Below, in pieces: positions 2,678 through 37,900 of a stretch of DNA of 64,000 nucleotides. A program made the translations under genes and the position numbers. The notes under the pieces are model-generated. The model did not search any database. It worked only from the letters and a program-made list of their open reading frames with translations, and was not told the DNA's origin. The stretch spans positions 28,226 through 92,225 of the forward strand of contig JASLZZ010000109.1 of NCBI GenBank assembly GCA_030754595.1, read 5' to 3'. Each line of letters begins with the position of its first letter. Positions within the stretch are counted from its first letter, which is position 1. The stretch is from Nitrospinota bacterium (lineage in GTDB: Bacteria > UBA8248).

Positions 2678-3235
2678 CTACTTCAACCCCGGCAGATCGA
2701 CCGGGCAAAATTCGTTGATTTCCGTCCGGAGGGCGCCGTTGAACTTGGCGTTGAAATTCTGATAGGCGGCGAAAACGCTGATCTCGACGATGGCGGGGGT
2801 GTTGTAGTGCGCCTTGAGGGCGTCGAACACCGCGTCCGGCACGTCCACCGGGGTTTTCGTCATGCCCTCGGTGTAGGCGAGGGCGGCGCGCTCGGCTTCC
2901 GTAAACTCGGGTCGCCCGGCGTAATCGAGTATCGCGGCGAGTTTATCCTCCGAATGCCCGGCGCGGAGACTCCGCGCCGAATGGAGGTCCACTCAATGGG
3001 GGCACTGGTTCAGGCGCGAAACCAGGAGGGTGATCAGCGGCTTCAGCGAGGCGGGCGCGAAATCGGTCTCCGCCTGCATCGCCTGCATCCCGGCGATGCC
3101 ATTGAGCAGGTCCGGGCAATGGCCGCGGACCCGGGTGGTGGTCATCGTCTTCCCGACGGCGGCTTTTTGGCCGTCGTAGATTTTTCGCACCTCGGGGGGC
3201 GCGTCGTCGTATTCGAGAAACGGAACGCGGGCCAA
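2678..3235 (-). CDS. AhpD/CMD-like putative selenoprotein (CPHU, 185 aa, Sec at codon 81, TGA 2993-2995)
   Basis: ORFs 2993-3235 and 2678-2992 are contiguous and in frame: LVSRLNQCPH-TGA-VDLH matches AhpD S-x2-N-x-CxxC-x3-H; RBS AAGGAG before TTG; downstream hairpin. Confidence 0.85.
2959..2979 (-). promoter_or_regulatory. Putative bacterial SECIS element
   Basis: 13 nt after UGA: CGGCGCGG-AGUCU-CCGCGCCG, plus a possible lower CCUCC/GGAGG stem. Confidence 0.7.
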
Positions 3236-3279
3236 GATAAAGTCTCCTTCGGCCCGCGCCCAGTCGAGGACCGGGCCGG

Positions 3280-4092
3280 TTATGCGGCCTCGGGCGCCCG
3301 GTTTGCGACAAAGGCCTCGATGGCCGATGTCGTCTCGTCGGAGGCCTCCAGGCTGATCAGGTGACCCACTCCGGGGACATCGATCTTGGCCGCGCCTTCG
3401 ATTTTGCCGGCCAGCTCGTCGGCGCAGGCGTGAAAACCCGCGTGATCGCGCTCCCCGACCAAAATCCGCGTCCGTGCCTTGATGGCGGGGGCCGCGTCGC
3501 CCAGGGAGGGGTCCCTCGGCGACTCGTTGTCGAGCCAGTGAGCGCCGGTGTAGGAGAGCATCATCTGATCGATTTTCGCGGCCACTTCCTCGTTTTCAAG
3601 CGCGGGCGCGAAAACCGGGAGCGAAAGCCACTTTTCCTTCGCCGCCCGGAGACCCTCGGCCCGGAGCGTCGCCATGACCTCGAGACCCTGGTCAACGAAT
3701 TCGGGCATGAGCCGGGCCTGATCGAAACTGGGACACATCGCGAAGACCGAGGCGGTCTTGTCCGGATGCGCGGCGGCGAAGCTCAGTGCGATCCCCGCTC
3801 CCCGGCTCAACCCGACGAAATGGGCCCTCGAAGCCTTCACGACCTCGAGCAGGTCATGGAGATCCTTGACCTCTTCTTCCCGGGCGTAGCCCGTGGCCGG
3901 TTTCTCGGACCGGCCGCAACCCCGAAGATCGTAGGTGACGATCCGGTTCGCGCTCCGGAGGGCTTGTTTTTGTTTGTCCCAAAACGAGCGGTTCAGGGTG
4001 TGGCCATGAATAAACACAATGGGAGTTTTGCTGGAGCCAAATTCGGTGTCGTCGAACGCGATTTGAATTCCGTTGCAAACAGCTTGCGCCAC
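3280..4092 (-). CDS. Alpha/beta hydrolase (enol-lactonase-like)
   Basis: FIHG, YDLRGCG, GLSRG nucleophile elbow, VGERD and C-terminal GH. Confidence 0.9.
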   Translation of the reverse strand: MAQAVCNGIQIAFDDTEFGSSKTPIVFIHGHTLNRSFWDKQKQALRSANRIVTYDLRGCGRSEKPATGYAREEEVKDLHDLLEVVKASRAHFVGLSRGAGIALSFAAAHPDKTASVFAMCPSFDQARLMPEFVDQGLEVMATLRAEGLRAAKEKWLSLPVFAPALENEEVAAKIDQMMLSYTGAHWLDNESPRDPSLGDAAPAIKARTRILVGERDHAGFHACADELAGKIEGAAKIDVPGVGHLISLEASDETTSAIEAFVANRAPEAA

Positions 4093-4279
4093 AGATAATC
4101 CTCCCGCGGGATATGAATCATCCGAGGTCTGCCGCCCGGCCCGGAGGGGCCGTCCCGCGACGGCGGGGGACCTGGGTTATCGAGACCGGCAAGGTATACA
4201 ACGAAGCGGCGGGTATGGCAAAGCGCGTCCGGCCGACCGGGCGAAACGGCGGCCGGGGCGGAAAAGAGGGCGCGGGCCC

Positions 4280-4471
4280 TTACTCCTCAAACGGAGCCGG
4301 CTCTTCTTCCTCGCCCGTTTCATCCACCAAATCCACCAGCCCGCACTCCCCGCAGGAGATCAGAATATTCTCCATCGGAATCCCCCGCGACTCCTCCTGG
4401 CGGATCCATTCCCTGAGCCGCTGCGTCAATGTCTCCTGCTCTTCCCGGGTCAATCGAGGTTCTTGCGGCAT
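4280..4471 (-). CDS. Small acidic protein with CxxC (CGEC)
   Basis: 63-aa ORF with GGGAG RBS directly downstream of the AhpD-like pair. Confidence 0.6.
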   Translation of the reverse strand: MPQEPRLTREEQETLTQRLREWIRQEESRGIPMENILISCGECGLVDLVDETGEEEEPAPFEE

Positions 4472-4504
4472 CGGACAATCTCCCTGATGAAGAGAAGAAT
4501 AAAA

Positions 4505-5104
4505 CTACCCGCTCACCTTGGAGCCATGGATTTTCCCGGACTCCTCCTGCGATACAGGATTCCCCTCGGGGTCGTGCATGGGGAACGCCTTCAGGGTCCG
4601 CATGAAAACCTGCATGCCGTAATGGAGGGCTATGAAGCCCCCGAGCTCCATGATCTGCGCCTCGCTGAAGTGTTTTTTGCCCTCATCGTAGAATTCCTTG
4701 TTCACCTTTCCCGGCTCCCGGTACATCGTATGCGCGTAGCGGAGCGCCCATTTCTCGGCAGGGGTGAAACCCGCGTCGTTCTCGAAATCGCCCGAGCCCG
4801 CCTCGATGCGCTCCTCCGTCAAACCTTCGCGCAAAGCCTTCCCGGAGCGCAGGTTGGCGAAGTAGGTGTCCTCTGCCTTACGGGCGAGTTGGACGCGGAT
4901 GATCTCCTTTAACTTGTGATCGACGCCCCCCTCGGCATGGGAGATGTGCATGGCATCGTGAAGCGCCTTAGCGTAGCCGGGCGCGCGGGCGAGTATCCAC
5001 ACGAATAGCGCGTCGGGCGCGCCCACCTCCTCGCAGCGGCCCAGTATTTTCCCGAAACCCTTTTCCTCGATCTGATCTTCGGGCAATGGCTCGATGACGG
5101 GCAT
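4505..5104 (-). CDS. AhpD/CMD-like protein lacking redox Cys/Sec (DTYF in place of CNYU)
   Basis: ATG 5104, 4 nt after the upstream stop; shares VDHKLKEIIRVQL with the upstream gene; AEKWALRYA and AQIMELG AhpD-like helices. Confidence 0.85.
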   Translation of the reverse strand: MPVIEPLPEDQIEEKGFGKILGRCEEVGAPDALFVWILARAPGYAKALHDAMHISHAEGGVDHKLKEIIRVQLARKAEDTYFANLRSGKALREGLTEERIEAGSGDFENDAGFTPAEKWALRYAHTMYREPGKVNKEFYDEGKKHFSEAQIMELGGFIALHYGMQVFMRTLKAFPMHDPEGNPVSQEESGKIHGSKVSG

Positions 5105-5108
5105 GGCC

Positions 5109-5762
5109 TCATTCCCCCTCATCGGCGGCGAGGGCCCGGGCGCGCCCAAGCGGCCCGCTGATGTGCGAGACCGGCCGTGAGCCGTAAATTTCCCGGGATT
5201 CCTCCTGGCTCACCAGGCGGCCGTCCGGCGAGAACATGGGATAGAAATCGAGCGTCCTGAAAAACGTGTGATACCCCACGTTGAAACCGATGAAGGCGCC
5301 GAGCTCGACGATCTCCGCGTCGGAATAATGTACGCGCAACCGCCCGTAGAAAGCCTCGTCGATTTTCTCCGGCTCGAACTGCATCAGCTCGCTGTACTCG
5401 AGAGCGATTTTCTCGGCGGCGCCAAACTTGTCGCTCTCCCGCCAGTTCTCGATCCCCTCGTCGATCAACTCCTCGGTGAGTCCGTCCCGCTTCGCCGAAG
5501 CGGATCGCACGTTGCCTCAGTAGTTGCAGTCGGCCGCCCGGGAGAGCTGGACCCGGATGATCTCCTTGAGCTTGTGATCGACGGCCCCGGTGTTGAAGAC
5601 CGCCCCCCAGGCGATATACATCGCCTTTGAAAGATCCTCGTTATGACCCTGCATGGCGTGAAAGGCCGGATCGGGAGCCCGGTGCTTGAGGCATTTGTTC
5701 ACGAACGGCCCGAGTTTTGTTTTCTTTAAATCCTCGATGTCGAGCATGCTGATATTTGGCAC
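5109..5762 (-). CDS. AhpD/CMD-like putative selenoprotein (CNYU, 217 aa, Sec at codon 82, TGA 5517-5519)
   Basis: GTG 5762 with AAGGAG RBS; QLSRAADCNY-TGA-GNVRSASAK continues in frame into ORF 5109-5510; colinear with the uninterrupted neighbouring paralogue. Confidence 0.85.
5485..5504 (-). promoter_or_regulatory. Putative bacterial SECIS element
   Basis: 12 nt after UGA: UCCGCUUC-GGC-GAAGCGGG. Confidence 0.65.
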
Positions 5763-6067
5763 CGTGGTCTCCTTTAAATCTGGTGCGGTTTATCGAACGA
5801 TGTGCGATTTCCCTCAATCCACCGGGTTTCATTCTTCAGGCTCCGCTCTTCGGTCAGAATGAGCGGCGGCGCTATCCCTGGCTTCCGCTCCCGAGCTTGC
5901 GGATGAGGGCGAGGAGCGTCTCCTTCTCCTCCGTGGTGAGATTCTCCATCATTTCGGCGTTGATCTCCAAAACGTCCGCGTAGCTGCTCACCAAACCCGC
6001 CTCGCATGCAAACCACCCCCCGGAGGGAGGGAGGTGCGATCAGCGGAAATCAGCGGGGCAGGGGGGA

Positions 6068-7438
6068 TTATCCCTCGGCCTGGAACTTTTTAAGCCCGGT
6101 GTCGATGGCGGAGACGATTGTCGCGCCCTGCTCTTCGGTCAATATGAGCGGCGGGGAAATGGTGAGCGTGTTCGAGGGCCCGTCGGCGATGCCGGCGTTC
6201 TTTCCGATGAGGACCCCCTCCTCCTTGACGTAGGACAGGACCTTCGCCGTCCCCTCGGTCGGAAGCGGGTCGCCGTTCTCCTCGATGAGTTCGACGCCCC
6301 AGATGAGCCCCACCCCCCGGACATCCCCCACACAGGGAATGTCTTTCAGATGGGCCAGCGCCTCGCCCAGGCCTTTTCCGACATCCCGCGCGTTTTGCGT
6401 CAGATTCTCCTCCAGCAGAATTTCGAGATTTTTGTTCGCAGCGGCGCACGATGCCGGGTGGCCTCCGTAGGTGTTGATTTGCTGGAAGCCCGCCTCGCCC
6501 TCGGCGTTGAGCACCTGGAACACTTCGTCCGTCACCGCCGTCGCGCCGATGGGCAGGTATCCGCTACTGAGCCCCTTGGCCATCGTCATCACGTCGGGCT
6601 TCACGCCGTAAAGGTCCGAGGCGAAGAGCTCGCCCGTGCGGCCAAAGCCGGTGATCACTTCGTCGATGATCATGAGCACCCCGTAGCGGGTGCAGACTTC
6701 CCGCATTTTCTTCAGATAGTCCGCCGGGGGGGGGATCACACCCCCGCCGCCGATAATCGGCTCGGCGATGAAGGCGGCGACGGTATCGGCGCCCTGGTAG
6801 CGGATCACGGCGTCGAGATCTTCGGCCAGCCGCTCGGCGAGGTCGAACTCGCTCGAACATCCGCTGCGGTAGAAATAGGGCGCCTGGAGGTGGACTACGC
6901 CCGGAAGGAGGGGCTCGAAGGGCGCGCGGCGGGCGGTCTGGCCGGTCAGGCTGGCGCCGCCGATGGTGCCGCCGTGATAGCCCTGATACCGGGCGATGAT
7001 CTTGTAGCGCCCGCCCTGTGTCCGGCCCCAGGCCCGGGCGATTTTGATGGCGGTGTCCACGGCCTCGGAGCCCGAGTTCACGAACCAGATGCGATCGAGG
7101 TCGCCGGGCAGAATGTCTCCGAGCTGGTCGGCGAGCCGAGCCGCCGGGAGGTTGATCTGGCTTAGCGGGTAGTAGGGAAGTTCGAGTAGCTGACGATAGA
7201 CCGCCTCGGCGACTTCCTTGCGCCCGTAGCCGATGTTGACGCACCAAAGGCCCGCCATCGCGTCGAGGTATTCCCGGCCCTCGCCGTCGGTGACGGTGCA
7301 GCCGTCGGCCTTGACGATGACGCCGAGCGGGTTCTCGTCGAGCGTGTTGTGATTGAGAAACGGGTGCCAGACGTGGTCCTTGTCGAGGTCGCGGATTTTC
7401 TGAATGTCCTCGCCCACTGCCGCGATTTCCGAATTCAT
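6068..7438 (-). CDS. Class III PLP aminotransferase (omega-amine/taurine/putrescine type)
   Basis: YLDAMAGLWCVNIGYG, NSGSEA, GYHG, FIAEPI, DEVITGFGRTG, TMAKGLSSGY. Confidence 0.95.
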   Translation of the reverse strand: MNSEIAAVGEDIQKIRDLDKDHVWHPFLNHNTLDENPLGVIVKADGCTVTDGEGREYLDAMAGLWCVNIGYGRKEVAEAVYRQLLELPYYPLSQINLPAARLADQLGDILPGDLDRIWFVNSGSEAVDTAIKIARAWGRTQGGRYKIIARYQGYHGGTIGGASLTGQTARRAPFEPLLPGVVHLQAPYFYRSGCSSEFDLAERLAEDLDAVIRYQGADTVAAFIAEPIIGGGGVIPPPADYLKKMREVCTRYGVLMIIDEVITGFGRTGELFASDLYGVKPDVMTMAKGLSSGYLPIGATAVTDEVFQVLNAEGEAGFQQINTYGGHPASCAAANKNLEILLEENLTQNARDVGKGLGEALAHLKDIPCVGDVRGVGLIWGVELIEENGDPLPTEGTAKVLSYVKEEGVLIGKNAGIADGPSNTLTISPPLILTEEQGATIVSAIDTGLKKFQAEG

Positions 7439-7487
7439 GGTTTTCTCTCCTTGAAGCACCGGGGCTGTTCCCTCGAAACCGCTTCGC

Positions 7488-8483
7488 TTACAAAATAGTA
7501 TATTTCAGCCTTTCCGCCTTAATCTCGTATCTCTGGCGACCGATCTTCGAAATCTCGCCCTCTATGATATCACCCGGCTTCAGGAATTTCCCCCACGAGG
7601 CGGCGTTGCCGGCGGGCGAGCCCGTCGCGATGATGTCTCCGGGGCGAAGCGTCGCGATGGTCGAGAGGTAGGCGACCTGCTCGTCCACCTTCCAGATCAT
7701 ATCACCCGTCGAGGCATTCTGGCGAAGCTCGCCGTTCACCCACAACCGGAGCCGGAGCTTGTGGGGGTCCGTTTTTTCATCGTTCAAAAGAATATAGGGC
7801 CCTGTCGGGGCGAAACCATCGGGCCCCTTCATCGCGTACCAGTCGATGAAGCGTTTATTGTCGCCCACACTCAGATTTCCGCGATCGCTCATATCGTTGA
7901 TGAGCGTGTATCCGCCGACGTGATCCATCGCCTTCCCGGCCGGGATGTTCCGCCCGCCGCGACCGATGACGATACCGAGCTCGAGCTCGTAGTCGAGTCT
8001 TTTCACCGAGCGGGAAACGACCACCGGATCGTAGGGGCCGTTGATGCAGGTGGCGGGCTTGATGAAACAATAAAGGGGGAGCTCCTCCTTGAAATCGTTG
8101 ATCTTCGTCCTGGCCATCTCGGCGGCATGGGCGACATAGTTCCGCGCCATGCAAAAAAGCGTCACCTCCGACACCGGCGGGAGAATCTCGACGCTCTCCG
8201 GGTCGTGAACAACGGGAAGGCCGTCGAAGGCGAGCGGTTGTTTTTTTCGCTTGAGCGCGCGGAGGGCCTTGATGGCGCTATCGGCGATCAGGCGGGTGGT
8301 CTCGGAATCCTCGAGGAGTTCCTCGCAGGTGGGCGCGACGATCTCCTCGGCGGCCTCGGTGGCCTCGGCCGGATCGGCGTCCCTGAGCGAGAGAGCGAAA
8401 GCAAGGGTCAGGTCGGCGATCCGTTCGCCGAACAGGATCCCGACGCGGGGGTCGCCCCCCAGGCTGAAAGTGCAAATGCGCAT
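7488..8483 (-). CDS. Fumarylacetoacetate hydrolase family protein
   Basis: RNYVAH, LDYELELG, INDMSDR, PGDIIATGSPAG. Confidence 0.9.
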   Translation of the reverse strand: MRICTFSLGGDPRVGILFGERIADLTLAFALSLRDADPAEATEAAEEIVAPTCEELLEDSETTRLIADSAIKALRALKRKKQPLAFDGLPVVHDPESVEILPPVSEVTLFCMARNYVAHAAEMARTKINDFKEELPLYCFIKPATCINGPYDPVVVSRSVKRLDYELELGIVIGRGGRNIPAGKAMDHVGGYTLINDMSDRGNLSVGDNKRFIDWYAMKGPDGFAPTGPYILLNDEKTDPHKLRLRLWVNGELRQNASTGDMIWKVDEQVAYLSTIATLRPGDIIATGSPAGNAASWGKFLKPGDIIEGEISKIGRQRYEIKAERLKYTIL

Positions 8484-8685
8484 GAACCGAATCTCCCAGG
8501 TAACTGTCCTATCGGAAACTTCCTTTGCCGGTGGAACGGGGCATCATACCACCACAGGCGCGGCCCTCGTCGTCGCCGGGCTGATCGTGCTCGCCCTCTC
8601 GAAATAACCCTCTCGAATTAACCCCCTTAAATGAAATCAGTCCCCATTTGGCATCATAAGATCCTAAATCAGGATTAGAAAAAAT

Positions 8686-9918
8686 CTAAATTACACCTTT
8701 CTTGTTCAGCCTATCGATCTCTTCCGACCCCAGCCCGAGCACGTTGCCGTAGATTTCATCGTTGTGCTCGCCGATGAGCGGGGCGGGATGCTCGTAGCCG
8801 CCGGGTGATTTTTCCAGCTTGAACGGGAAGCCCTGGGCATGAACACCCGGAACCGCGCCGAGGCGGGGATGCGGAAGCTCGCCGATCATCCCCCGCTCGC
8901 GGAGGTGGGGCCAGGCGAGAATGTCCCGAATGTTGCGGACCGGCCCGCAAATCACCCCGCCCTCCCGCAGACGGCGGACGGCCTCCCCGGTATCGCGCTC
9001 CTTTGTCCAGGCCACGATGATTTCATCGATCTCCTCGTTGTTCTCGAGGCGTCCGGTCATGTCGGCGTAGCGCTCATCGTCGATCAGATCATCGCGTCCG
9101 ATGGCCCTGAGAAGATCGCGCCAGTGGATGTCGGTGCCCGTACAGATGACGAGCCAACCGTCATTCGCCGGGTAGGAGTTGAACGGGGAGAGCCGCATGA
9201 TGCGGTTGCCCATCCGCTCGGGGAGGCCGAGTTCTTCGTAGCAGTCCATCGGCTCATCGAAAATCAGGGAGAACATACAGTCCGCCATCGAAATATCGAC
9301 GAACTGGCCCTCTCCCGTGCGCTCGCGGTGAAAGAGCGCCGTCATGATGCCGCCGAAGGCGAAAGTGCCACTTAGGCTGTCGGCCAGCGCCGAGCCCGCC
9401 TTGGTAGGCGGTCCGTCCGGAAATCCGGTCAGGTCCATCAGTCCGGACGCTGCCTGGATTACCGCATCGTAGCCCTTGAGGCCCGCGTCCGGTCCGGTGG
9501 CGCCGTATCCCGAGATAGTGCAGTAGATGAGCCTGGGCCGGCGCTCTTTCAGGGAGGGATAGTCGATGCCGAGGCGTTTCGTCACACCCGGCCCGAAGTT
9601 TTCGACGAGGATGTCGGACTCGTCCACAAGGCGGAGGAAAATCTCGCGCCCGCGCGGTTCCTTGATGTTCAGGGTGACGGACTTTTTGTTTCGTGCGCGC
9701 TTGAGGTAGGCGATACTGATGTCGTCTTCAGTCTGCTTTTGAAACGAGATTCCCTTGGAGCCGACGAAGGGCGGGCTGTCGGCGACCGGGTCCTTCGCTC
9801 CCGGATTGTTGATGCGGATCACCTCGGCCCCCAGGCCGGCGAGAAACAGCGTCGCCTGCGGGCCGGCGAGATATTGCGTCAGGTCGAGAACCCGGATGCC
9901 TTCAAGTGGTTTTGACAT
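8686..9918 (-). CDS. CaiB/BaiF family (class III) CoA-transferase
   Basis: PLEGIRVLDLTQYLAGP, RNKKSVTLN, ENFGPG, GYDAVIQA, APLIGEHN. Confidence 0.95.
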   Translation of the reverse strand: MSKPLEGIRVLDLTQYLAGPQATLFLAGLGAEVIRINNPGAKDPVADSPPFVGSKGISFQKQTEDDISIAYLKRARNKKSVTLNIKEPRGREIFLRLVDESDILVENFGPGVTKRLGIDYPSLKERRPRLIYCTISGYGATGPDAGLKGYDAVIQAASGLMDLTGFPDGPPTKAGSALADSLSGTFAFGGIMTALFHRERTGEGQFVDISMADCMFSLIFDEPMDCYEELGLPERMGNRIMRLSPFNSYPANDGWLVICTGTDIHWRDLLRAIGRDDLIDDERYADMTGRLENNEEIDEIIVAWTKERDTGEAVRRLREGGVICGPVRNIRDILAWPHLRERGMIGELPHPRLGAVPGVHAQGFPFKLEKSPGGYEHPAPLIGEHNDEIYGNVLGLGSEEIDRLNKKGVI

Positions 9919-9989
9919 GAGGCCATTCTACCGGCCGGCGGGATATTTTTCACCTGGCGGCGCCATCCAAACCTCGGCTCCACTACCGG

Positions 9990-10203
9990 CTCCGCTATCG
10001 CCCTTCGAACCATTCCCGCAGGGTCCGCCCATCGGCCAGCCTTTCCCGCCCGATTGGCGCTCCGGCCAGTTTTTCCATCTGAGACCGCCCATCGACCACC
10101 CTTTTCTTTTTCCGGCCCGGCGCTTTGGCCATTTTTTTCATTCAGGCCGGCGGTCCGGCCAATCTTTTCCGCCGGCTTGGGGCTTTGGCCAGTCTTTTCC
10201 GCA
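9990..10203 (-). repeat. Degenerate ~30-bp tandem repeat, about 7 units
   Basis: Minus-strand units GCGGAAAAGACTGGCCAAAGCCCCAAGCCG, GCGGAAAAGATTGGCCGGACCGCCGGCCTG, GATGGAAAAACTGGCCGGAGCGCCAATCGG, GCGGGAAAGGCTGGCCGATGGGCGGACCCT. Confidence 0.65.
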
Positions 10204-10648
10204 TGGCGGCGGCTCTTGCCAGGACGGAGGAGGCGTTCTTTCCGTTCGCTCCATGAACATAAGCCAATCGGCTCAGGGTTTTTGCGATATGGGAATGATC
10301 CGGCCCTAGATTTTTTTCATATATGGCCAACGCCGTCTTCAATACACGCTCCGCCTTATGGAATTTATTCTTGCGAAAATACACAGGGGCCATCTCAAAG
10401 AGCGCATGGCCGACTTCCGTATGCCCGGCTCCAAGGACTGTCGTGCGGATTTTCAGGCTCCGCTTATATAGCGCTTCGGCTTTATCGAACTTACGCTGAT
10501 GCCGCAAGGAAGTTACCCGGGCGCTGAGTTTTTTCGCCTCCGCGAGCGTTTCTCCGGCCTGGGCAGGTGCAACCGTCCCGGAGATAGAAAAACCCGAAAT
10601 AACGGCGGCAAGAACAAAAAGGGCGAAAATCTTCGATGCTGTCCGCAT
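10142..10648 (-). CDS. Exported tetratricopeptide-repeat protein (kinesin-light-chain-like TPR)
   Basis: Signal peptide; AEALYKRSLKIR..LGAGH and ALAIYEKNLGPDH repeats. Confidence 0.8.
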   Translation of the reverse strand: MRTASKIFALFVLAAVISGFSISGTVAPAQAGETLAEAKKLSARVTSLRHQRKFDKAEALYKRSLKIRTTVLGAGHTEVGHALFEMAPVYFRKNKFHKAERVLKTALAIYEKNLGPDHSHIAKTLSRLAYVHGANGKNASSVLARAAAMRKRLAKAPSRRKRLAGPPA

Positions 10649-10884: not shown

Positions 10885-11517
10885 CTACCCCTTCTTGGCC
10901 GCTTTATTTTTCTTGGAGCGCTTGGCCAGCCTGGTCCGCATCGCCCGGGCCTCCTTGAGGAGCGGGGCGGCCTCCTCCCACAAACCGATCAACTCATAGA
11001 CGCTGGCCTGGCGTTTCAGGGTGTCGGCGATGAAGGCATGGTCCAGGCCCAGATTCTTCTCGTAGATAGCGCGCGCCCGTTTAAGAAGCTTGGTCGCTTT
11101 GGCGAACTGCCCCAGGTTCCAGAAGGAGGGCGCCATTTTGTATAGTGTGTGGGCGACTTCGATATGGCCGGGGCCGGCTGTCCTCTCGAGGGTCGACAGC
11201 CTCTTCCAGAAAAGGGCGCCGGCCTTCTCGAATCGGCGCGTCGCCTGGTAGATGGTGGCCAGAGCGTCCTGGCTTTCGAGCACCTGAGCATGATCGGGCT
11301 TGAGGGATTTTTCGCGGTAGGCCAGGGCCTTCCTCGCCAGCGGGAGCGCTTTTGTGTACCTCCTCGAACGAATGAGTTCTTTCACCTGCTTATTGAGTTT
11401 GTTTGCCTTTGAGAGGGGGCCGTTGATGACAAGCTTCTCGCCCTCCCCGCAGGAGGAAAGAACCGGCAAGGCCGCGGACAATAAAAAAATCGCGAGTTTC
11501 CTTGATGTAAACCGCAT
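10885..11517 (-). CDS. TPR lipoprotein, paralogue of the neighbouring gene
   Basis: Lipobox-like LSSC; KLC-type TPRs (EKSLKPDH, EKNLGLDH). Confidence 0.8.
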   Translation of the reverse strand: MRFTSRKLAIFLLSAALPVLSSCGEGEKLVINGPLSKANKLNKQVKELIRSRRYTKALPLARKALAYREKSLKPDHAQVLESQDALATIYQATRRFEKAGALFWKRLSTLERTAGPGHIEVAHTLYKMAPSFWNLGQFAKATKLLKRARAIYEKNLGLDHAFIADTLKRQASVYELIGLWEEAAPLLKEARAMRTRLAKRSKKNKAAKKG

Positions 11518-11775: not shown

Positions 11776-12327
11776 CTACGGTTTTCCCGTCAGGTTTCGC
11801 TTCACCTGGGGCGCAGCGGCGGCGGCGCGGACCGCGATCTCATCGTCCGAGATGGTGCTCAAAGGGTGCTCGATTACAACCGGATCGATGTCCTCCATCC
11901 CGAGCGCGGCGCGCTGGACATGGGCCTCGTGCAGAAAGGTCTCGGTGACGATCACCGCTGTAGGGACGCCGAGTTGTTCGAGGTATACGCCGTCGTGCAT
12001 ACAGCACGATGTGCACGAGCCTCAATCGCCGATGGCGGTGACGACGACATCGCTCTCGGCGGCGATTCGGCCGATTAACTCGGGCGCGGCGTTTTTCGAA
12101 AAACTCTCCTTTTTATAGAACGTCACCTCGCCCATCTCCTCCTCGGCCGCGAGAAGAGAGAGCGTCTTTTCTAGAAACCGCCTGCCGTTCCACTTTGTGT
12201 TGTCGAGGACGCCTACCCTGAGCCCTTCGAGAGAACCCGCCCTGGCAGCGATGGGACGCGCCTCGGCCTCGACCGCGCCGCGCGGGTCGTAGACTCTTTG
12301 TCCCGGGGTGTTCATCAAAGTGTTCAT
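11776..12327 (-). CDS. UGSC-family putative selenoprotein (183 aa, Sec at codon 102, TGA 12022-12024)
   Basis: AAGGAGG RBS; VVTAIGD-TGA-GSCTSCCMHDGVYLEQLGVP is in frame with ORF 11776-12000; U-G-S-C motif. Confidence 0.88.
11993..12009 (-). promoter_or_regulatory. Putative bacterial SECIS element
   Basis: 12 nt after UGA: UCGUGC-UGUAU-GCACGA. Confidence 0.6.
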
Positions 12328-12352: not shown

Positions 12353-13453
12353 CTAAAGCATGCAGGTGCCGTCCACGCAGACCGGCCCCGAGGCCGGCTC
12401 GCTGTCGTCGATCGCCCGCAGCACCGGGTTCGTCATGTGCCCCCATCCGGGGATGAAAGCCGAGAACCGGCCCGCCTCCCCGCCCAGGACGAAAAGATGA
12501 ATATTCTCGGGACCCGGCACGATGGGAATCCGCGCCTCCGGCTCGCGCCCGTACCAGCGCGGCAGGTTGCGGTTGTAAATTTTTCCGTAGCGATGAGAGA
12601 AGCTGACGTCGGCGAAAGTGTTCTTGGTGTTCATCCACAGGAAACTCCGCACGTCGTGGCGCGTCCATCCCTTCGAGGCGATGGTGGCCGCGTGCTCGGG
12701 GCCGATCACCACGGCGCACGAGCCGCTGCTGACGGCGTTGTTGTGGGCGATGGTGCTCATCGCCGAGCAGACGCTCTCCAGTATCCCCTCGGGATCGTCC
12801 GAAATGTGGTTGGTGACGCTGTGAGGCGCCTCGGCGGCGATGGCGAACACCGTGCTGACCTCGGGGGCGAAGCCCTTTTCGACGTGGTAGGGCGCCCAGG
12901 GACTTATCTCCTCGTTCTCGGCGACGCAGTAGGTGTACTTCCCCGGATGGCCGAGCGTGCTTTTATCGAGTTCGCCGGGCCAGGCGCCGCCGGCGTTCAG
13001 GAGAACCAGCCGCACCGCCCGGCCAATCGTCGCGTTGGCCCGGTTTCCCGATCCGAAGGCGTTGCACCCGGCGTTCATCCCGATCTCGTTTCGAACCGGG
13101 CCGTTCATAATGATCAGCGGCGAGGCCATGTGGGTGGTCGCCTGTACGCCGTTCAGGTTGAAATGGGGATCGCACAACGCCCGTATCGCCGCGCGGACGA
13201 CAGGGGCGTACTCGGGCAGACAGCCCGCCATCACCGCGTTGACGGCCAGTGTCTCCCGCGTCAGGCTCCCCCACCGGGGCGGCACCCGGCACTCGAGCGT
13301 GTCCGCCCCCCCGCCCAGCGCCTCCAGCATCGCCGCCACTTTTTCGGGCGTCGGCGGCGCGACGGGCAGCCCGTCCGAAAATCCCCGTTCGTAGTAGTGC
13401 TCGATCAGATCTACATCGGGGCCGACGGTTTCGCCGGCAGCCGTTTCGGGCAT
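12353..13453 (-). CDS. Uncharacterised UGSC-associated protein with C-terminal CVDGTC
   Basis: 366-aa ORF with AAGGAG RBS; DGLPVAPPT, AVNAVMAGC, GNRANATIGRAVRL, GHPGKY, ENEE motifs. Confidence 0.8.
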   Translation of the reverse strand: MPETAAGETVGPDVDLIEHYYERGFSDGLPVAPPTPEKVAAMLEALGGGADTLECRVPPRWGSLTRETLAVNAVMAGCLPEYAPVVRAAIRALCDPHFNLNGVQATTHMASPLIIMNGPVRNEIGMNAGCNAFGSGNRANATIGRAVRLVLLNAGGAWPGELDKSTLGHPGKYTYCVAENEEISPWAPYHVEKGFAPEVSTVFAIAAEAPHSVTNHISDDPEGILESVCSAMSTIAHNNAVSSGSCAVVIGPEHAATIASKGWTRHDVRSFLWMNTKNTFADVSFSHRYGKIYNRNLPRWYGREPEARIPIVPGPENIHLFVLGGEAGRFSAFIPGWGHMTNPVLRAIDDSEPASGPVCVDGTCML

Positions 13454-13516: not shown

Positions 13517-13966
13517 TCAGCCACCCTGGCGCCCCAGCTTTCGGCAGAGGCGGCGAAGCTCGTCCTGCTCGGCGGCTGTCAGCGCGGCCATTTCGTCGCG
13601 GATAGCGGCGACGCGCCGGGGAAGCAACTCCCGGATCGTATTCTTTCCCTTGGCGGTGAGGCGGACGGCCACCCGTCGGCGGTCGCCCGGGTCGCGCTCG
13701 CGCCGGACCATACCGCCGCGCTCGAGATTGTCCACCACCATGGTGACGTTCCCGCTCGTCCTGAATATCTTCTCGCCCAACTCGCGCTGTGAGAGCGGCC
13801 CCAGATGAAAAATCGCGTCGAGGACGCTGAATTGGCTCTGAGTGATCGCGAGGCCCGCGAACTGCCCGTTCAGCCGGCCCATCACCGACTCCCCGGCGCG
13901 GACGAGATTGATGATCGCGCTCAGCGCCCGCGCCTCGGACTTTGGACCACGGTAGCGGCTGCCCAT
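13517..13966 (-). CDS. MarR family transcriptional regulator
   Basis: SQFSVL, NVTMVVDNLE, DPGDRR..LTAKG winged-helix motifs; GAAGGAGG RBS. Confidence 0.95.
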   Translation of the reverse strand: MGSRYRGPKSEARALSAIINLVRAGESVMGRLNGQFAGLAITQSQFSVLDAIFHLGPLSQRELGEKIFRTSGNVTMVVDNLERGGMVRRERDPGDRRRVAVRLTAKGKNTIRELLPRRVAAIRDEMAALTAAEQDELRRLCRKLGRQGG

Positions 13967-24428: not shown

Positions 24429-24890
24429 TCACGCGGCCGAAGCCGGCTGCCTCATTTCTCCGGCCCGCTTTCCGGCGGCCCGGAACAGGAGAACCGGAAC
24501 GCCGGCTCCCCGGAGAACTTTTTCGGCCACGCTCCCCATCATGAGGCGGGCGGGCCCCGTCCTCCCGTGGGTCGCCATCGCCAGAAGATCGAAGTCACCG
24601 CGCGTCAGGTGGCCCAGTATCTCCTCGGCCGGAAACCCGTACCGCACAGTGGTTAGCGCCTTGACCCCGTCCGCTTTGAGATCCTTCCTGACTTTCTCGA
24701 GGTAGCCTTAGGCCTCTTCGGTCACTTTGATCTGGGCCTCCGTCGGGTCCACGCCCGGAAACACCAGCGCGAAAACCACCCGGAGGAGGGTGACCTCTGA
24801 GTCGTGGAAAGCGGCGATTTTACGGACTTCCTCGAGCGTCTCTTCGGCGAGCTTCGACCCGTCCAGGGGAACCAGAATTTTTTCGAACAT
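24429..24890 (-). pseudogene. Universal stress protein with in-frame TAA at 24708-24710
   Basis: MFEKILVPLDGS...TEEA-TAA-GYLEKVRK continues in frame to MATHGRTG..GSVAEKV. Confidence 0.85.
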
Positions 24891-24921
24891 TTTCTCCTCC
24901 TTCGGCGATACGAATCGCCCG

Positions 24922-25380
24922 CTAGATAATCGCCTTGGCAAGCGATGCCTCGCTCAACGTGAGCATGGGCACCGGGGACACCGCCACGAGCTTCTCCACA
25001 ACACTGCCCATCAGGGTGTGGGAGATTCCCTGCCGCCCATGCGTCGCTATCACGACGAAATCGATATCGTGGAGACGAATCGCGTGGAGTATCTCCTCGT
25101 GGGGATCGCCGGCGACGATATGCTCCTCGTGCTCCAGCCCGGCGAGGCCGATTTCCAGGACGGCCTCCTCGACCATCGACTGCGCCTTGACGGAGGTTTC
25201 GGCCCGCATGGAATCCCAGTCCTTCCCTTCCCTGGCGTATACTTCCACCGTTTCAGGGGGAACGACGTGGAGGGTGATGAGTTTGGCCCCGAATATATTA
25301 GCCATCGTGGTGGCCCACCTGAGTTCCTCGAGGCTGCGCCCCGAAAAGTCGATGGGGGCGAGGATTTTTCTTATCTCCAT
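24922..25380 (-). CDS. Universal stress protein
   Basis: KILAPIDFS; ATHGRQG..MGSVVEK. Confidence 0.92.
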   Translation of the reverse strand: MEIRKILAPIDFSGRSLEELRWATTMANIFGAKLITLHVVPPETVEVYAREGKDWDSMRAETSVKAQSMVEEAVLEIGLAGLEHEEHIVAGDPHEEILHAIRLHDIDFVVIATHGRQGISHTLMGSVVEKLVAVSPVPMLTLSEASLAKAII

Positions 25381-30320: not shown

Positions 30321-30348
30321 AACCTCCCGCGGCCCGCGCCGCGCCGTA

Positions 30349-31514: not shown

Positions 31515-32015
31515 GTGAACGCTCGCCGCCATTGGATGATTTTGCTCGCGCTCGCCGTCTCGACGGCGGCTTTCGCGGGTTGCGGAAAATCCGCCGCCAA
31601 GAGTATGGACGAAACCTTGAGCCTCCCCTTCCGGGGGGTGCGGGCCGGGGTCCGCGGGATCGGAAAAGGTGCCGGCGCCATCGGCGAGGCCGGCGGCGGT
31701 ATTTTCGGCCGCCTGCTCACCGACCGCAACCACACCGCCCTCGTGCGCGAGCACAAGGACACGCTCTCTCACCTGACGGCGGTCGAGAAACAGATCGAGC
31801 GCCGCCAGATCGGCCCCAATCGCCTGGAGAGAAGACTCCTCCGGGACGCTCACGACCGCCTCGCCGCCATCGGCCGCCAACTCGAGGCCAAGCGAATCCC
31901 CGCGGGCGTGGGGAAGCGGATGTACACCCAACTCGATGGGGTGCGGCAGTCGCTCAACCTGTTCCGGCAGCGCCACAACACGCCGCGCTACACCGGCTTC
32001 ATCGCGGTCCGCTAG
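31515..32015 (+). CDS. Putative lipoprotein
   Basis: GTG after AGAGGA; signal peptide ending FAGC. Confidence 0.65.
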   Translation: MNARRHWMILLALAVSTAAFAGCGKSAAKSMDETLSLPFRGVRAGVRGIGKGAGAIGEAGGGIFGRLLTDRNHTALVREHKDTLSHLTAVEKQIERRQIGPNRLERRLLRDAHDRLAAIGRQLEAKRIPAGVGKRMYTQLDGVRQSLNLFRQRHNTPRYTGFIAVR

Positions 32016-32047
32016 CCCCACCGAGCAGCGGAGGGCATCTCTCTCTC

Positions 32048-33403: not shown

Positions 33404-34806
33404 GCGGCGAGATGCTTCAGATCAGGGATATTTCCGAGATGCCGCTCGTCAGCCGCGATGCGCCCGCGCCTGTGCAAGGCGCCCCCGCCGCCGCCCTCGT
33501 TTCGCTGGGCTGCGCGAAAAACACCGTGGACAGCGAGATCATGCTCGCCGCCCTCGTCCGGGCGGGCTACCGGCTCGTTGCCGACGCCCGGGAGGCCCGG
33601 GTCGTCATCGTCAACACCTGCGGCTTCATCGAGGACGCCAAGCGCGAGTCGATCGACGCGATTCTCGATCTCGCCCGTCTCAAGGAAGAGGGCCCCCTCG
33701 AATCGCTCATCGTAGCTGGCTGCCTGGCCGAGCGCTACCGGGGGGAGTTGGCCCGGGACCTCCCCGAGGCGGATCTTTTTCTCGGCACGCGGGAGTACGA
33801 CCGCATCGCGGAACTCCTGGCCGAGGCGCCGGGGGGGGCGCCGCCCGCCCGCGAGGCGTTCTCGGACACCCTCATGGACTACAGCCGGCGACTTCCGAGG
33901 GTGCTCTCCGAGCCCGGCCCGAGCGCCTATCTCAAGGTCGCCGAGGGTTGCTCGAGGCCCTGCACCTTTTGCGTCATCCCCCGCTTCAGGGGGCGGTTCC
34001 GCTCGCGCCCGGCGGAGCATATTACAGAAGAGGCCGAGGCCCTCGCCGCCGCCGGGGTGAAGGAGATAAATCTCCTCGCCCAGGAGATCACGAGCTACGG
34101 CGCCGATCTCGGCGGGGGATTATCGCTGGCCGGCCTTCTCGAACAACTGAACGAAGTGGAAGGCCTGCGCTGGATCCGCATTCTCTACAACTACCCGCGC
34201 GGGGTGACGGACGATCTCCTCGCCGCTATCCGCGATCTGCCCAAGGTGGTGGAATACATCGACATGCCCCTTCAACACATCGCGACTTTTGTATTGACCG
34301 CGATGCGCCGAGGGATCGACGAGGCGGGGACCCGCGCGCTCATCGAGCGAATGCGCCGGTCGGTCCCCGGCTGCGCGCTCCGGACGACGATGCTCGTCGG
34401 GTTTCCGGGCGAGAGCGAGGAAGACTTCGACGCCTTGCTCGACTTCACCGCCGAGACGCGCTTCACCCGGCTCGGGGCGTTCGCCTTCTCGCCCGAGGAG
34501 GGCTCTATCGCGGCCCGGCTACCGGACCCCGTCCCCCGGGAGATCGCCCGCGAGCGTCTCGCCCGGCTGCTTGAGCTTCAGGAGGGGATTCAGACCGGGG
34601 CGAACGAGGCTCTGATCGGGGAGCGGGCCGAGGTTCTCGTCGAGGGCATGACCGCCGAGGGGCTCCTGAGAGGGCGCACCCGCCACCAGGCCCCCGAGGT
34701 GGACGGCGAGGTTTTCCTGCACGAAACCGAGGCCGCCCCCGGCGACATCATCGATTGTGAGATCATGGACACCGACGGGGTGGACCTGATCGCCCGGGGG
34801 GTTTAG
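33400..34806 (+). CDS. rimO: Ribosomal protein S12 methylthiotransferase
   Basis: SLGCAKNTVDSE, NTCGFI, AYLKVAEGCSRPCTFC, YIDMPLQH, APEVDG TRAM. Confidence 0.93.
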   Translation: MSGEMLQIRDISEMPLVSRDAPAPVQGAPAAALVSLGCAKNTVDSEIMLAALVRAGYRLVADAREARVVIVNTCGFIEDAKRESIDAILDLARLKEEGPLESLIVAGCLAERYRGELARDLPEADLFLGTREYDRIAELLAEAPGGAPPAREAFSDTLMDYSRRLPRVLSEPGPSAYLKVAEGCSRPCTFCVIPRFRGRFRSRPAEHITEEAEALAAAGVKEINLLAQEITSYGADLGGGLSLAGLLEQLNEVEGLRWIRILYNYPRGVTDDLLAAIRDLPKVVEYIDMPLQHIATFVLTAMRRGIDEAGTRALIERMRRSVPGCALRTTMLVGFPGESEEDFDALLDFTAETRFTRLGAFAFSPEEGSIAARLPDPVPREIARERLARLLELQEGIQTGANEALIGERAEVLVEGMTAEGLLRGRTRHQAPEVDGEVFLHETEAAPGDIIDCEIMDTDGVDLIARGV

Positions 34807-34902
34807 GCCAAGCCACCCTCCGCAACATTCCTCACCATTTACATTTAGTTATTAATTGCCATAAGGTATCCGAATCAAATTATTCAACCATCCGGAGACG
34901 TC

Positions 34903-36762
34903 ATGGCGCTCAGCGTCGCCCCGATCCAGGATATTGAAGACCTGCGCGCGGCCGTCAACGACGGCTCGCGCCATGTCCAAAAAACCTATTTCACCTTTCT
35001 GCTGGTCTCCATCTACATCGCCATCATCATCGTCTCGACCACCCACGAGCAGCTACTCCGCGGAAGAGATGTGACGCCTCCGTTTCTCAGCGTCGGAATG
35101 GCCATTGTCTGGTTTTATTTCATCTTTCCCTGTCTCTTTTTACCCCTCCATCTGAACCTGATTATTCAATACTATCTTCTCTCCCAGAAGATACATGAGA
35201 TGAACAAAATCGACCCGAACACGGACAAACCCGGCTCGGGATTGCTGTTCCATACCTCCCTTTTCACGCAATCCATGATAGGAACCTTCCGGGACGGCAC
35301 GCGGAAAGTCTTTTTCGAGCCCCTGGTCTACTACTCGTCCGCCGTTTTGCCGATCCTCTTGCTTTTCTTCGGTCTCATCAAATTTCTCCCCTACCACTCG
35401 GAACCAATTACCTGGTTGCATCGCGTTTCGATCTCCCTCGACCTCATCATGGTCTGGTTTTTCTGGGTGAAGATCATTCAGGAAGAAGGCCAGCTTAAAA
35501 TCTGGTGGGATGATTTCTGGGGAAGAATTTCTCCCGAAAAAAGCAAAATGGGCAGATCGAACCGCGCTGCGGCAGCCGTCAATTTCTTTCTCTCCCTTCT
35601 CTTGATTCTGTTTTCCGTTCTCGTGACGACCATCCCCGATGAATCTCAATCCATAGAACCGGTCAGTCAATATTTCGAGGATAACTGGTCATGGTTCACC
35701 CGCAATCTCGACCTCCACGAAAAGACCCTCGTCGAAAAAGAGCCGCCCCCGAAATCATCGCGGCGCTCATCCCAGAGTCCGGCGGAGACGAAGCGAAAGC
35801 CACTCAAAAAGCATGTAGCAACAAGGAACTGGTCACGGGGCTTAATCTTCAGCGCCGCGATTTACGCTACGCCGATTTTTATAGGGCAAAACTCCCCTTC
35901 GCCGATCTTCGGGGAGCCAACCTTCAACAAGCGAATTTGAGGGAGGCGCAACTGCAGGGTTCGAATTTGAGGCGGGCACGGATGCAGGGTGCGGATTTGA
36001 GGTCCGCACGGATGCAGGGCGTGAATTTTGGGGGGCGCGGATGCAGGGCGCGAACTTGTGGAGGGCAGAGATGCAGGGAGTGGATTTGATGTCCACGGAT
36101 ATGCAGGGCGCGGATTTGAGGCGGGCACGGATTTGAGTGGCACGCGGATGCAGGGCGCGGATTTTGGGAACGCGCGGATGCTGGGTGCGGATATCTCCAG
36201 TGCTCATTTCCAGTTAAGCGTTCTGGCTCGCCTGGATTTGGAGAACGGAGGCGATTGGAAGGTGCCCCGGAAAACCATCCAAGACACGGTTCCGAAGGGG
36301 AGGATACAGGATACCGCATTAAAGCGGTTAAAAGACGCCGAAGGCCGGGAGAAAAAAGTAAAAGAAAGGAAAGAACAAAAAGGTTTCTTTTCCCACCTTA
36401 AGACCGACGTAACCGGAGCTTATTGCGATAAGACATCTGAATTTTTGGGCTGCACAACCCCTCACAAAAAAATATTGTTTATCAGGGAGCGGGGAGAATG
36501 TTTGGCGGGCGAGCCCGCCTGCAGCGATAAGTATGCGGCCCGCGCCCTGATCTCTCGACATCTAGAGAACGACCCCACAAAGCCAGAAAATATCGTGGTA
36601 TTACTCACCGGCCATTCCTTGAGCAAGGCTCTGAAAAATTCTACGTGCCCGGAAGTGCTGTCCGCCTTCAATACCTGGCCGGACCTGAGAGCCAAAGTGG
36701 AGCGGTGGACGACGCCCGACGTGGCGCAACTGGCCAAGGAAGCCGAGAAGGGTTTGAAGTAA
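34903..36762 (+). pseudogene. Membrane-anchored pentapeptide-repeat protein broken by about three frameshifts
   Basis: TM-rich N-terminus; frame changes at a C-run (~35750), a G-run (~36030) and an apparent deletion (~36130); AxMQGADL repeats persist across frames. Confidence 0.75.
35921..36200 (+). repeat. 30-bp tandem repeats encoding pentapeptide pairs
   Basis: Recurring ATGCAGGGCGCGGATTTG core every 30 nt. Confidence 0.8.
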
Positions 36763-36847
36763 CCCCCGCCCCGAAGTAACCTTCCCCAACAGCCAATTTT
36801 CACGGGCATCGGCGTTAAAATTTTCCTTCGGTAGGAGTTCGCCCCTC

Positions 36848-37300
36848 ATGATCGGTTTGCTGATGAAGCGGCCGCCGCTGATCGCCCTGCTTTGTCTTCT
36901 AGGTGGGCTTTGGCTCGATTCCGTGCTCCCCTCCGGGCCGCCGGTGGGCGGGGGTTTCAGGGCGCTGGGGGCGCTGCCGGCCGGGATGGGCATCTGGATG
37001 ATGATCAAGGCGGTCCAGGCCTTCGAGCAGCGGGGCACCCCCCACAAGCCCGAGGAGACACCTACCACACTCGTCACCGATGGCCCCATGCGCCTCTCGC
37101 GCAACCCGATGTACCTGGGGATGGCGCTGCTCCTGGCGGGTATCGGCTGGCTGCTGGTCGCGACGCCGGTGATGCTCTCGGGACTCGTTTTCGCCCTGAT
37201 CGTTCAAAAATATTTCATCCTGCCCGAGGAGGAGGAACTCGAGGGCCTCTTCGGAGATGAATACAAGGCCTACCGGAGCCGCGTCAGGAGATGGCTCTAG
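36848..37300 (+). CDS. Isoprenylcysteine carboxyl methyltransferase/PEMT family membrane protein
   Basis: LVTDGP..SRNPMYLG; EEEEL..FGDEY..YRSRVRRWL. Confidence 0.9.
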   Translation: MIGLLMKRPPLIALLCLLGGLWLDSVLPSGPPVGGGFRALGALPAGMGIWMMIKAVQAFEQRGTPHKPEETPTTLVTDGPMRLSRNPMYLGMALLLAGIGWLLVATPVMLSGLVFALIVQKYFILPEEEELEGLFGDEYKAYRSRVRRWL

Positions 37301-37345
37301 GCCCCGGACACATTTTTTCGTCTTTAACAAAAAGGAGATCCGCGA

Positions 37346-37900
37346 ATGCCCCGCGTCCCCGAACTGCCCGACACACCCGATGACCCTCTCGCGAGGGAAC
37401 TCTTCGCGCACCAGATCGAAAACGACGGTTTCGTATTCAACCCTTCGAGGGTCCTCGGCCACCGGCCCAGCATCTTGCGCGGGATCGGCCAGCTCCAGCG
37501 GGGGGTGAACGAGTCGGGCCTGCTCGGCGGAGACCTCAAGGCCCTCGTCAACGTGCGCGTCGCCTCGATCAACGGGTGCCCGTTCTGAATGGACATCCAT
37601 TCGTCCCGTGGGATGAAAGAAGGCGTCACGCTCGATAAGATCGCGGCGCTCGACAGCTACGCCACCGACCCGCGCTTCACCGCCCGAGAGCGCGCCGCGA
37701 TCAATTTCGCCGAGCGGATGACGCGGACCGATCTCGACGTGACCGACGCGGCCTTTGCGGCGGCGCGGGAGGAGTTCAGCGTCGAGGAAATGGTAGAGCT
37801 GGCCGGGGTGATCGCGCTCGAGAATTTCCGCTCGAAGTTCAACAACGCCTTCCGCATCGAGGCCCAGGGTTTTTGCGCCATTCCGGAAAAGAAAGGATAG
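37346..37900 (+). CDS. AhpD/CMD-like putative selenoprotein (CPFU, 184 aa, Sec at codon 81, TGA 37586-37588)
   Basis: AAGGAG RBS; RVASINGCPF-TGA-MDIH contiguous in frame; homologous along its length to 2678-3235. Confidence 0.87.
37600..37617 (+). promoter_or_regulatory. Putative bacterial SECIS element
   Basis: 11 nt after UGA: UUCGUCC-CGUG-GGAUGAA. Confidence 0.6.

Follow-up and report, generated by a model that had tools for sequence, protein, structure and literature searches.

In-frame TGA codons followed by SECIS-like hairpins mark probable selenoprotein genes of the AhpD-like and UGSC families in a Nitrospinota genome

AhpD-like proteins with a CxxU motif and UGSC-containing proteins are among the commonest selenoprotein families in the family counts of the Sargasso Sea (PMC1088965) and Global Ocean Sampling (GOS; PMC2398784) papers. 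A table of the GOS paper gives 299 selenoprotein sequences for 'AhpD-like 1', and the sections of that paper that deal with UGSC present it as a major family with 255 selenocysteine (Sec) forms and 21 cysteine homologues, for which a thioredoxin (Trx)-like fold is suggested (PMC2398784). UGSC, Ogt, DUF3179 and others of the families found here stand in the family table of a 2026 review (PMC13188914). We analyzed a stretch of 64,000 nt from a Nitrospinota bacterium, namely bases 28226-92225 of contig C109 (the window), in which an initial annotation made from the letters alone had singled out four in-frame TGA codons. Three of them lie in genes for AhpD-like proteins, hereafter AhpD1, AhpD2 and AhpD3, and the fourth lies in a UGSC-family gene. 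The four TGAs are very probably Sec codons in working genes, each with an ordinary bacterial selenocysteine insertion sequence (SECIS) hairpin.

The lineage is also on record. Table 2 of the BSepDB paper gives 54 selenoprotein genes for the metagenome-assembled genome (MAG) FO_M_Nitrospinota_01, and the paper's ranking places three Nitrospinota MAGs of GTDB UBA8248, with 54, 50 and 48 selenoprotein genes, in its top-ten bacteria (PMC13326102). For the present locus, earlier descriptions exist of the protein families, of the type of hairpin and of the selenium-rich lineage alike, and it shows no departure from described biology: it is real but ordinary. The genome to which the window belongs has 3.55 Mb in 138 contigs and a GC content of 60.1%. 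For comparison, each protein was searched in 60 relatives and in the window's own genome (61 in total).

TGA codons within conserved redox motifs

AhpD1 is encoded on the minus strand (2678..3235), from a TTG start to a TAG stop, and its TGA (2993..2995) corresponds to residue 81, in the motif C-P-H-U-x-x-x-H. The AhpD2 gene (5109..5762, minus strand) has a GTG start, carries its TGA (5517..5519) at residue 82 in the motif C-N-Y-U and terminates at an ordinary TGA. In the UGSC gene (11776..12327, minus strand), the codon is found at 12022..12024, residue 102, within D-U-G-S-C-x-x-C-x-x-H-D. AhpD3, on the plus strand (37346..37900; ATG start, TAG stop), has it at 37586..37588, residue 81, within C-P-F-U-x-x-x-H. 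All four TGAs reported in the initial annotation (2993, 5517, 12022 and 37586) were found where it had placed them, its minus-strand coordinates denoting the low end of the codon.

Reading TGA as Sec turns four pairs of half-genes into full-length single-domain proteins, and an AGGAG Shine-Dalgarno sequence lies upstream of all four starts. The frames are continuous across the TGAs: one uninterrupted Pfam domain match spans each of them, namely CMD (PF02627; cut-off, 23 bits) in AhpD1, AhpD2 and AhpD3 (45.8, 36.2 and 48.8 bits, respectively) and UGSC (PF24696; cut-off, 25 bits) in the fourth protein (197.8 bits). The latter also passes the cut-off of NF041046 (158 versus 125 bits) and shows no difference from the described UGSC family. 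The NCBIfam models that best match the four proteins are named '(seleno)protein'.

The Sec positions of AhpD1, AhpD2 and AhpD3 fall in one alignment column, the second position of C-x-x-C, and nine further AhpD-like paralogues in the genome carry TGA in that same column (12 with AhpD1 to AhpD3 included). When AhpD3 is aligned with proteins of solved CMD fold (2ijc, 2gmy and 7xw1), this column holds the second Cys of their INGCxxC motif. The proposals that the TGAs occupy redox-Cys positions and that three of them hit the homologous AhpD codon are borne out by these alignments. We take Mycobacterium tuberculosis AhpD, a CxxC alkylhydroperoxidase with a C-x-x-C-x-x-x-H arrangement, to represent the fold family of the AhpD-like proteins here; in the mycobacterial protein, the reactive Cys is the second. 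AhpD1 and AhpD3 have the C-x-x-C-x-x-x-H arrangement with Sec at the second Cys, and AhpD3 matches TIGR00777 weakly (16.1 bits). Sec would replace the second Cys of the CxxC redox motif in AhpD1 to AhpD3, and it would be the first residue of the defining motif in the UGSC protein, where U-G-S-C-x-x-C-x-x-H-D is invariant across 20 aligned sequences. Compared with the marine AhpD-like (CxxU) selenoproteins, as far as the relevant parts of the literature describe them, the likeness lies in the CMD/AhpD fold, in Sec as the second residue of CxxU and in the G of the SECIS loop, whereas AhpD2 differs in having no His four positions beyond Sec (C-N-Y-U-G-N-V-R), as well as in being paired with a Cys-less tandem paralogue.

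The TGA codons are conserved. Among the AhpD1 matches listed, 19 of 19 have TGA, and 14 of 14 orthologues examined keep it. The TGA of AhpD2 is kept in the 38 best matches among relatives and in 80 of 80 named homologues, the nearest of which come from MAGs labelled Nitrospinota or Nitrospinaceae (97%, 94%, 86% and lower); an AhpD2 homologue on a FO_M_Nitrospinota_01 contig is 90% identical over residues 1-173. The UGSC protein has a match in 36 of 36 same-family genomes, with TGA in every match listed. For AhpD3, TGA is found in 33 of 38 matches among relatives, down to 31% identity. By match coordinates, the order of the Sec genes in the window is kept in relatives.

We also looked at the structure of the UGSC protein. 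Its AlphaFold model (predicted local distance difference test score [pLDDT], 88.8) gave, in contrast to the Trx-like fold suggested in the GOS paper, only generic flavodoxin- or Rossmann-like alpha/beta matches in Foldseek, with template modeling (TM) scores of at most 0.5, and a search by sequence yielded no solved homologue. When the UGSC profile was compared with that of the PrdB-like selenoproteins in the genome, Sec aligned with Sec at a probability of 7%, which we regard as a lead only.

Hairpins downstream of the TGA codons

The consensus given in the bacterial SECIS part of the 2026 review is a loop of 3-9 nt on an upper stem of 4-16 bp, with a distance of 16-37 nt between UGA and loop, a G as first or second loop base that is usually followed by G or U, and an energy of -7.5 kcal/mol or lower (PMC13188914). 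The AhpD1 hairpin (2957..2981, minus strand) has an 11-bp stem, the loop GUC and a spacer of 11 nt; the loop becomes AGUCU when the closing A-U pair is opened. The hairpins of AhpD2 (5486..5504, minus strand) and of the UGSC gene (11993..12009, minus strand) both start after a 12-nt spacer, the former with an 8-bp stem and the loop GGC and the latter with a 6-bp stem and the loop UGUAU. In AhpD3 (37600..37617, plus strand), a 7-bp stem that includes one G-U pair carries the loop CGUG after a spacer of 11 nt. The UGA-to-loop distances are 22, 20, 18 and 18 nt for AhpD1, AhpD2, UGSC and AhpD3, respectively. The four elements have a structure in common and almost no sequence in common.

The initial annotation had described spacers of 11-13 nt, stems of 6-8 bp and a G within the first two loop positions. 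The G is present in GUC, GGC, UGUAU and CGUG, and the spacers are 11-12 nt; the stems, at 6-11 bp, exceed the described range because that of AhpD1 is longer. With respect to the bacterial consensus of the bSECISearch type, in the form set out in the sources consulted, the four hairpins fit in their position inside the open reading frame (ORF), in loops of 3-5 nt and stems of 6-11 bp, in a loop G followed by U or G, and in a spacing of 18-22 nt. Nothing categorical differs from that consensus; the isolated AhpD3 hairpin misses its energy threshold. As isolated contiguous hairpins, those of AhpD1, AhpD2 and UGSC have energies of -18.6, -10.1 and -8.4 kcal/mol, and AhpD3 reaches about -10 kcal/mol only in wider folds of 41-45 nt. 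Folds of 45 nt gave -23.4, -16.1, -17.1 and -10.3 kcal/mol for AhpD1, AhpD2, UGSC and AhpD3, respectively.

We then determined how often such hairpins occur elsewhere. Genes and stops were called with a home-made codon-score caller trained on the same genome, which yielded 1139 stringently called stops (397 TGA, 467 TAG and 275 TAA). A strict rule was used, with at least 6 contiguous bp, a loop of 3-6 nt, a G within the first two loop bases and a loop start 20-27 nt from the U of UGA. Hairpins of this kind follow 3547 of 96760 TGA trinucleotides (3.67%) and 3.3-3.8% of five control trinucleotides; at true stops, the counts are 24 of 397 for TGA, 16 of 467 for TAG and 8 of 275 for TAA. The comparison suggested by the initial annotation, that with ordinary UGA stops, showed that the hairpins are not equally common there: 4 of 4 Sec sites have one versus 24 of 397 true TGA stops (Fisher p = 1.9e-5). 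At read-through-like stops, where both flanks are coding-like in the same frame, a strict hairpin was present in 27 of 176 cases for TGA, 7 of 225 for TAG and 3 of 114 for TAA. A relaxed, fold-based rule was dropped as too unspecific (50 of 176 TGA versus 32 of 225 TAG and 12 of 114 TAA). An Rfam scan of the window returned no family at its gathering score and was of no help on SECIS elements.

The hairpins are constrained at the RNA level. The AhpD1 core, GGCGCGGA-GUC-UCCGCGCC, has at most one base changed among the seven orthologues closest to AhpD1 (63-99% identity) and is degraded in two orthologues at 55-57% identity; distant orthologues have another hairpin, UCGGCC-AGGU-GGCUGA, at the same place, with G as the second loop base. 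In AhpD2, 100% of the stem cells are paired over 23 distinct orthologues; one pair is compensatory (U-A in 13, C-G in 10) and couples a synonymous Ser change with an Arg/Gln change. The UGSC hairpin covers codons +5 to +9, which show zero synonymous variation over 29 distinct orthologues; the flanking codons are free to vary in the same set, with four codons used at +4 and two at +10. Over 18 distinct AhpD3 orthologues, 94.4% of the stem cells are paired and 4 of 7 pairs have changed on both sides, and the covariation score was reached by 0 of 500 shuffles. Sliding one strand out of register lowered the pairing to 36-61%.

Selenocysteine machinery, selenoproteome and rival readings

The machinery for Sec incorporation is present in the genome. 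A tRNA-Sec with anticodon UCA was detected by ARAGORN on contig C102 (c[3896,3992]) and scored 73.6 bits with Rfam RF01852 (gathering score, 47). The selA gene (551.8 bits; cut-off, 267.9) lies on contig C113 together with selB (364.5 bits; cut-off, 242.25), which matches the whole model, and selD (345 bits; cut-off, 125), on contig C16, has one in-frame TGA of its own. An absence of tRNA-Sec or SelB had been named beforehand as what would speak against Sec, and tRNA-Sec, selA, selB and selD are all present. Following the textbook bacterial pathway, SelD would make selenophosphate and SelA would convert Ser-tRNA-Sec into Sec-tRNA-Sec. SelB would bind Sec-tRNA-Sec and the hairpin starting 11-12 nt after the UGA, and Sec-tRNA-Sec would reach the ribosome while the UGA occupies the A site. 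We infer Sec insertion, SelB binding and a redox function for the products, which would be selenol/thiol oxidoreductases.

The genome was scanned by pattern. The strict hairpin combined with the coding score gave 27 candidates, in 26 of which a family or domain match spans the TGA; in 13 more genes without a strict hairpin, a family match likewise spans the TGA, for a total of 39 Sec genes. As the scan is home-made, this number is a lower bound: among 149 read-through-like TGAs without a strict hairpin, 20 were scanned against the family library, 2 more were followed up on account of their peptide context, and the others were judged by that context alone. By family, the set comprises 13 AhpD-like, 3 UGSC and 5 GrdB- or PrdB-like proteins; two each of deiodinase-like, OsmC-like, ResA-like and peroxiredoxin (Prx)/SelL-like proteins; and one each of SelD, DsbA-like, glutaredoxin (Grx)-like, C-GCAxxG-C-C, rhodanese, ArsM-like methyltransferase, CUAEP radical-SAM, Ogt, DUF3179 and a CoA-transferase-like protein. 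The view of the initial annotation that the organism is rich in selenoproteins is upheld by these 39 genes with a family match across an in-frame TGA. At least 39 were thus counted here versus 48-54 in the UBA8248 MAGs, as given in the BSepDB entries seen, and by its sequences the genome appears to be a selenoprotein-rich relative of Nitrospinota-labelled MAGs.

In the window, 4 Sec genes lie in 35.2 kb versus 0.39 expected (Poisson p = 7e-4, a post hoc value). Upstream of the window, the same contig carries a PrdB-like Sec gene (L020, 5206-6228 of C109) and, at about 8859-9353, an AhpC/TSA Prx-like Sec gene with the motif G-H-W-U-P-Y-C, so that six Sec genes lie within about 60 kb of contig C109.

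Two members of the set deserve separate mention. L023 (contig C116, 3435-4244) encodes Ogt, O6-alkylguanine-DNA methyltransferase (102.3 bits), in which the Cys codon of the active-site P-C-H-R is a TGA followed by a strict hairpin; Ogt is entered in the table of known selenoproteins in the review (PMC13188914). L026 (contig C122, 11719-12627) is a CoA-transferase (Pfam CoA_trans, 70.2 bits) whose in-frame TGA falls within the domain and is accompanied by a strict SECIS-like hairpin. This TGA is shared by 19 orthologues (60-100% identity), the paralogues of L026 have no TGA, and the paralogue adjoining it has Cys at the Sec position (EHACYS versus EHAUAS). L026 is matched by no '(seleno)protein' NCBIfam model, and the CoA-transferase family is not named in the text of the 2026 review (PMC13188914). 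On these sequence grounds, the L026 protein may represent an unlisted selenoprotein family.

Other candidates were rejected: L021, whose family match does not extend across the TGA; L031, L035 and L046, which are adjacent in-frame genes; and the Prx-like C43:13067, whose frame ends 17 codons past the TGA. L032, a class III aminotransferase (contig C25, 1724-3211), was rejected as well, its TGA being kept in 0 of 4 orthologues. It had a match in none of four same-genus genomes and sits on a 5.8-kb contig, and it is probably a pseudogene, an error or part of a contaminant contig. An aldo/keto reductase, L036, is retained as a candidate only.

The initial annotation had also expected the four hairpins to yield a lineage-specific SECIS model, and this part did not stand. 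Their geometry lies within the published general consensus, as far as the reviewed sections define it. The AhpD2 hairpin hardly varies among its named homologues and recurs in 80 of 80 of them, the source MAGs being labelled Nitrospinota, Acidimicrobiia, Rhodospirillales, SAR324 and others, and 13 of the 39 Sec sites of the genome itself fail the strict geometry. We also applied a contiguous-hairpin version of the consensus given in PMC13188914. It fitted 27 of 39 Sec sites, with a narrow spacing of 16-25 nt in 26 of the 27 and with GG or GU in 25; elsewhere it fitted 45 of 397 true TGA stops, 60 of 467 TAG stops, 23 of 275 TAA stops and 251 of 2992 random TGAs. The consensus is thus enriched at Sec sites, but it lacks full sensitivity and is not specific to this genome. 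As a separate observation, AhpD2-type proteins 66-97% identical occur in MAGs labelled Nitrospinota, Acidimicrobiia, Rhodospirillales, Alphaproteobacteria, SAR324, Tectomicrobia and others; this occurrence over many phylum labels could reflect a wide horizontal spread, or binning or labelling noise.

Several points weigh against reading the four TGAs as Sec codons served by these hairpins. The genome is a MAG with an estimated completeness of 96.9% and an estimated contamination of 6.4%, the gene calls rest on the home-made codon-score method, and the strict hairpin rule was written and tuned after the four hairpins had been seen. AhpD1, AhpD2 and AhpD3 score below the cut-offs of NF053654 (YciW-related (seleno)protein; 98.9, 62.6 and 144.2 versus 310) and of TIGR01926 (peroxidase-related enzyme; 40.4, 34.2 and 43.6 versus 81.8), and judging by these scores they are relatives, not members, of both models. 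The AhpD3 hairpin is weak and, alone and contiguous, misses -7.5 kcal/mol. There is one covarying pair in the AhpD2 hairpin and none in that of UGSC, so that the support for these two is invariance, not covariation. The weakness of the AhpD3 hairpin and the scarcity of covariation in AhpD2 and UGSC also speak for the view that the selenoprotein genes are real and that at least one of the named hairpins is not the element bound by SelB, being instead a by-product of conserved codons or belonging to some larger or different structure. The alternative pairings seen in longer folds of AhpD1 and AhpD3, among them a small hairpin immediately downstream of the UGA, point the same way, as do the 13 of 39 Sec sites without a contiguous hairpin of such geometry. 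We nevertheless consider this improbable in view of the compensatory changes in AhpD3 and the loss of its pairing when one strand is slid, of the synonymous sites of UGSC, which are invariant precisely where stem and loop lie and vary freely to either side, and of the distant AhpD1 orthologues, which differ in sequence and still have a hairpin at the same distance with G second in the loop.

The fragmentation of the MAG, together with the presence of at least one non-conserved in-frame TGA (the contig C25 aminotransferase) and of a universal stress protein (Usp) gene with an in-frame TAA, would be in line with TGAs that are nonsense mutations or sequencing errors in pseudogenes or assembly artefacts. 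This account is very hard to reconcile with the finding of TGA at the same codon across dozens of independent genomes, at protein identities as low as 31%, and with three paralogues that have TGA at the same motif position, each followed by a constrained hairpin, and we give it almost no weight. The open frames taken alone would equally suit a code in which TGA specifies an ordinary amino acid, either Trp or Gly (NCBI tables 4 or 25). However, TGA is also a normal stop in this genome, as it ends 397 of 1139 stringently called genes, AhpD2 included; in-frame TGAs are few and stand at Cys positions of redox motifs; and tRNA-Sec with anticodon UCA is present along with selA, selB and selD, all of which makes a reassigned code extremely improbable. 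Decoding of the four TGAs as Sec, with the help of SECIS hairpins, is the reading that we retain.

Gene neighbourhood and local annotation

The three minus-strand Sec genes belong to a string of minus-strand genes headed by a MarR-family regulator (13517..13966; PF01047, 59.4 bits). It is followed by a gene for a 366-aa protein of no known family (12353..13453), directly upstream of UGSC, and then, between UGSC and a family III CoA-transferase (8686..9918), by two tetratricopeptide repeat (TPR) genes (10885-11517 and 10142-10648). Next come an FAH-family hydrolase (7488-8483) and a class III aminotransferase (6068-7459), then AhpD2 and its tandem paralogue (4505..5104), which has neither Cys nor Sec, with D-T-Y-F in place of C-x-x-U. 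A 63-aa ORF separates this paralogue from an alpha/beta hydrolase (3280-4092), after which comes AhpD1.

The Cys-less paralogue is 41% identical to AhpD2 and starts 4 nt after it, and in most relatives a TGA-less copy adjoins the Sec copy of AhpD2. The recurrence of this tandem, in which one copy has Sec and the other is redox-dead, suggests that the two proteins form a hetero-oligomer.

The neighbourhood of UGSC is conserved to varying degrees. The 366-aa gene is directly before UGSC at 29 of 30 loci, at one of them with 42% identity, and the CoA-transferase directly follows UGSC at 22 of 30 loci. MarR was seen at 6 of 30 loci, the remaining flanks being too short to judge. The 366-aa gene and UGSC are likely to form one operon. 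The 366-aa protein had no Pfam match even at E = 10 and no NCBIfam match, its AlphaFold model was poor (pLDDT, 50.2), and its Atlas matches were 'hypothetical protein' clusters only. In one Atlas cluster, of 417-aa proteins (score, 0.89), 16% of the members carry the UGSC Pfam, which is no more than a lead, and a passage of the GOS paper mentions a fusion between UGSC and 'Unknown_1' (PMC2398784). Together, the adjacency at 29 of 30 loci, the 417-aa cluster and this fusion suggest that UGSC and the 366-aa protein are a functional pair.

More tentatively, the genes from MarR to AhpD1 might form one conserved and possibly MarR-controlled string, rather than being antioxidant genes scattered over the region. 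UGSC would then act together with the 366-aa protein, and the AhpD-like proteins would have a specific small molecule as substrate, in selenium-dependent catabolism or detoxification. This joint reading draws on gene order alone, and we regard it as rather doubtful. If true, it would provide the first functional context for the long-unexplained UGSC family. The conserved pairing of UGSC with the 366-aa protein and the CoA-transferase-like protein with a conserved Sec/Cys pair are leads that are possibly new.

A standard gene caller would split or truncate the four Sec genes of the window and about 35 others in the genome, and correct reading of the in-frame TGAs restores a large redox proteome. 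A further difficulty was seen at AhpD3, which is overlain by a 341-aa antisense ORF (36899-37924, minus strand) without a family match. This ORF outscores both halves of AhpD3 in the codon-score caller and is therefore a trap for automatic annotation in a GC-rich genome. Elsewhere in the window, a Usp gene on the minus strand (24429-24941) is split by an in-frame TAA (24708-24710). One piece matches the N-terminal half of Pfam Usp and the other its C-terminal half. The split gene, which lies between two intact Usp genes, is a pseudogene or the product of a sequencing error.

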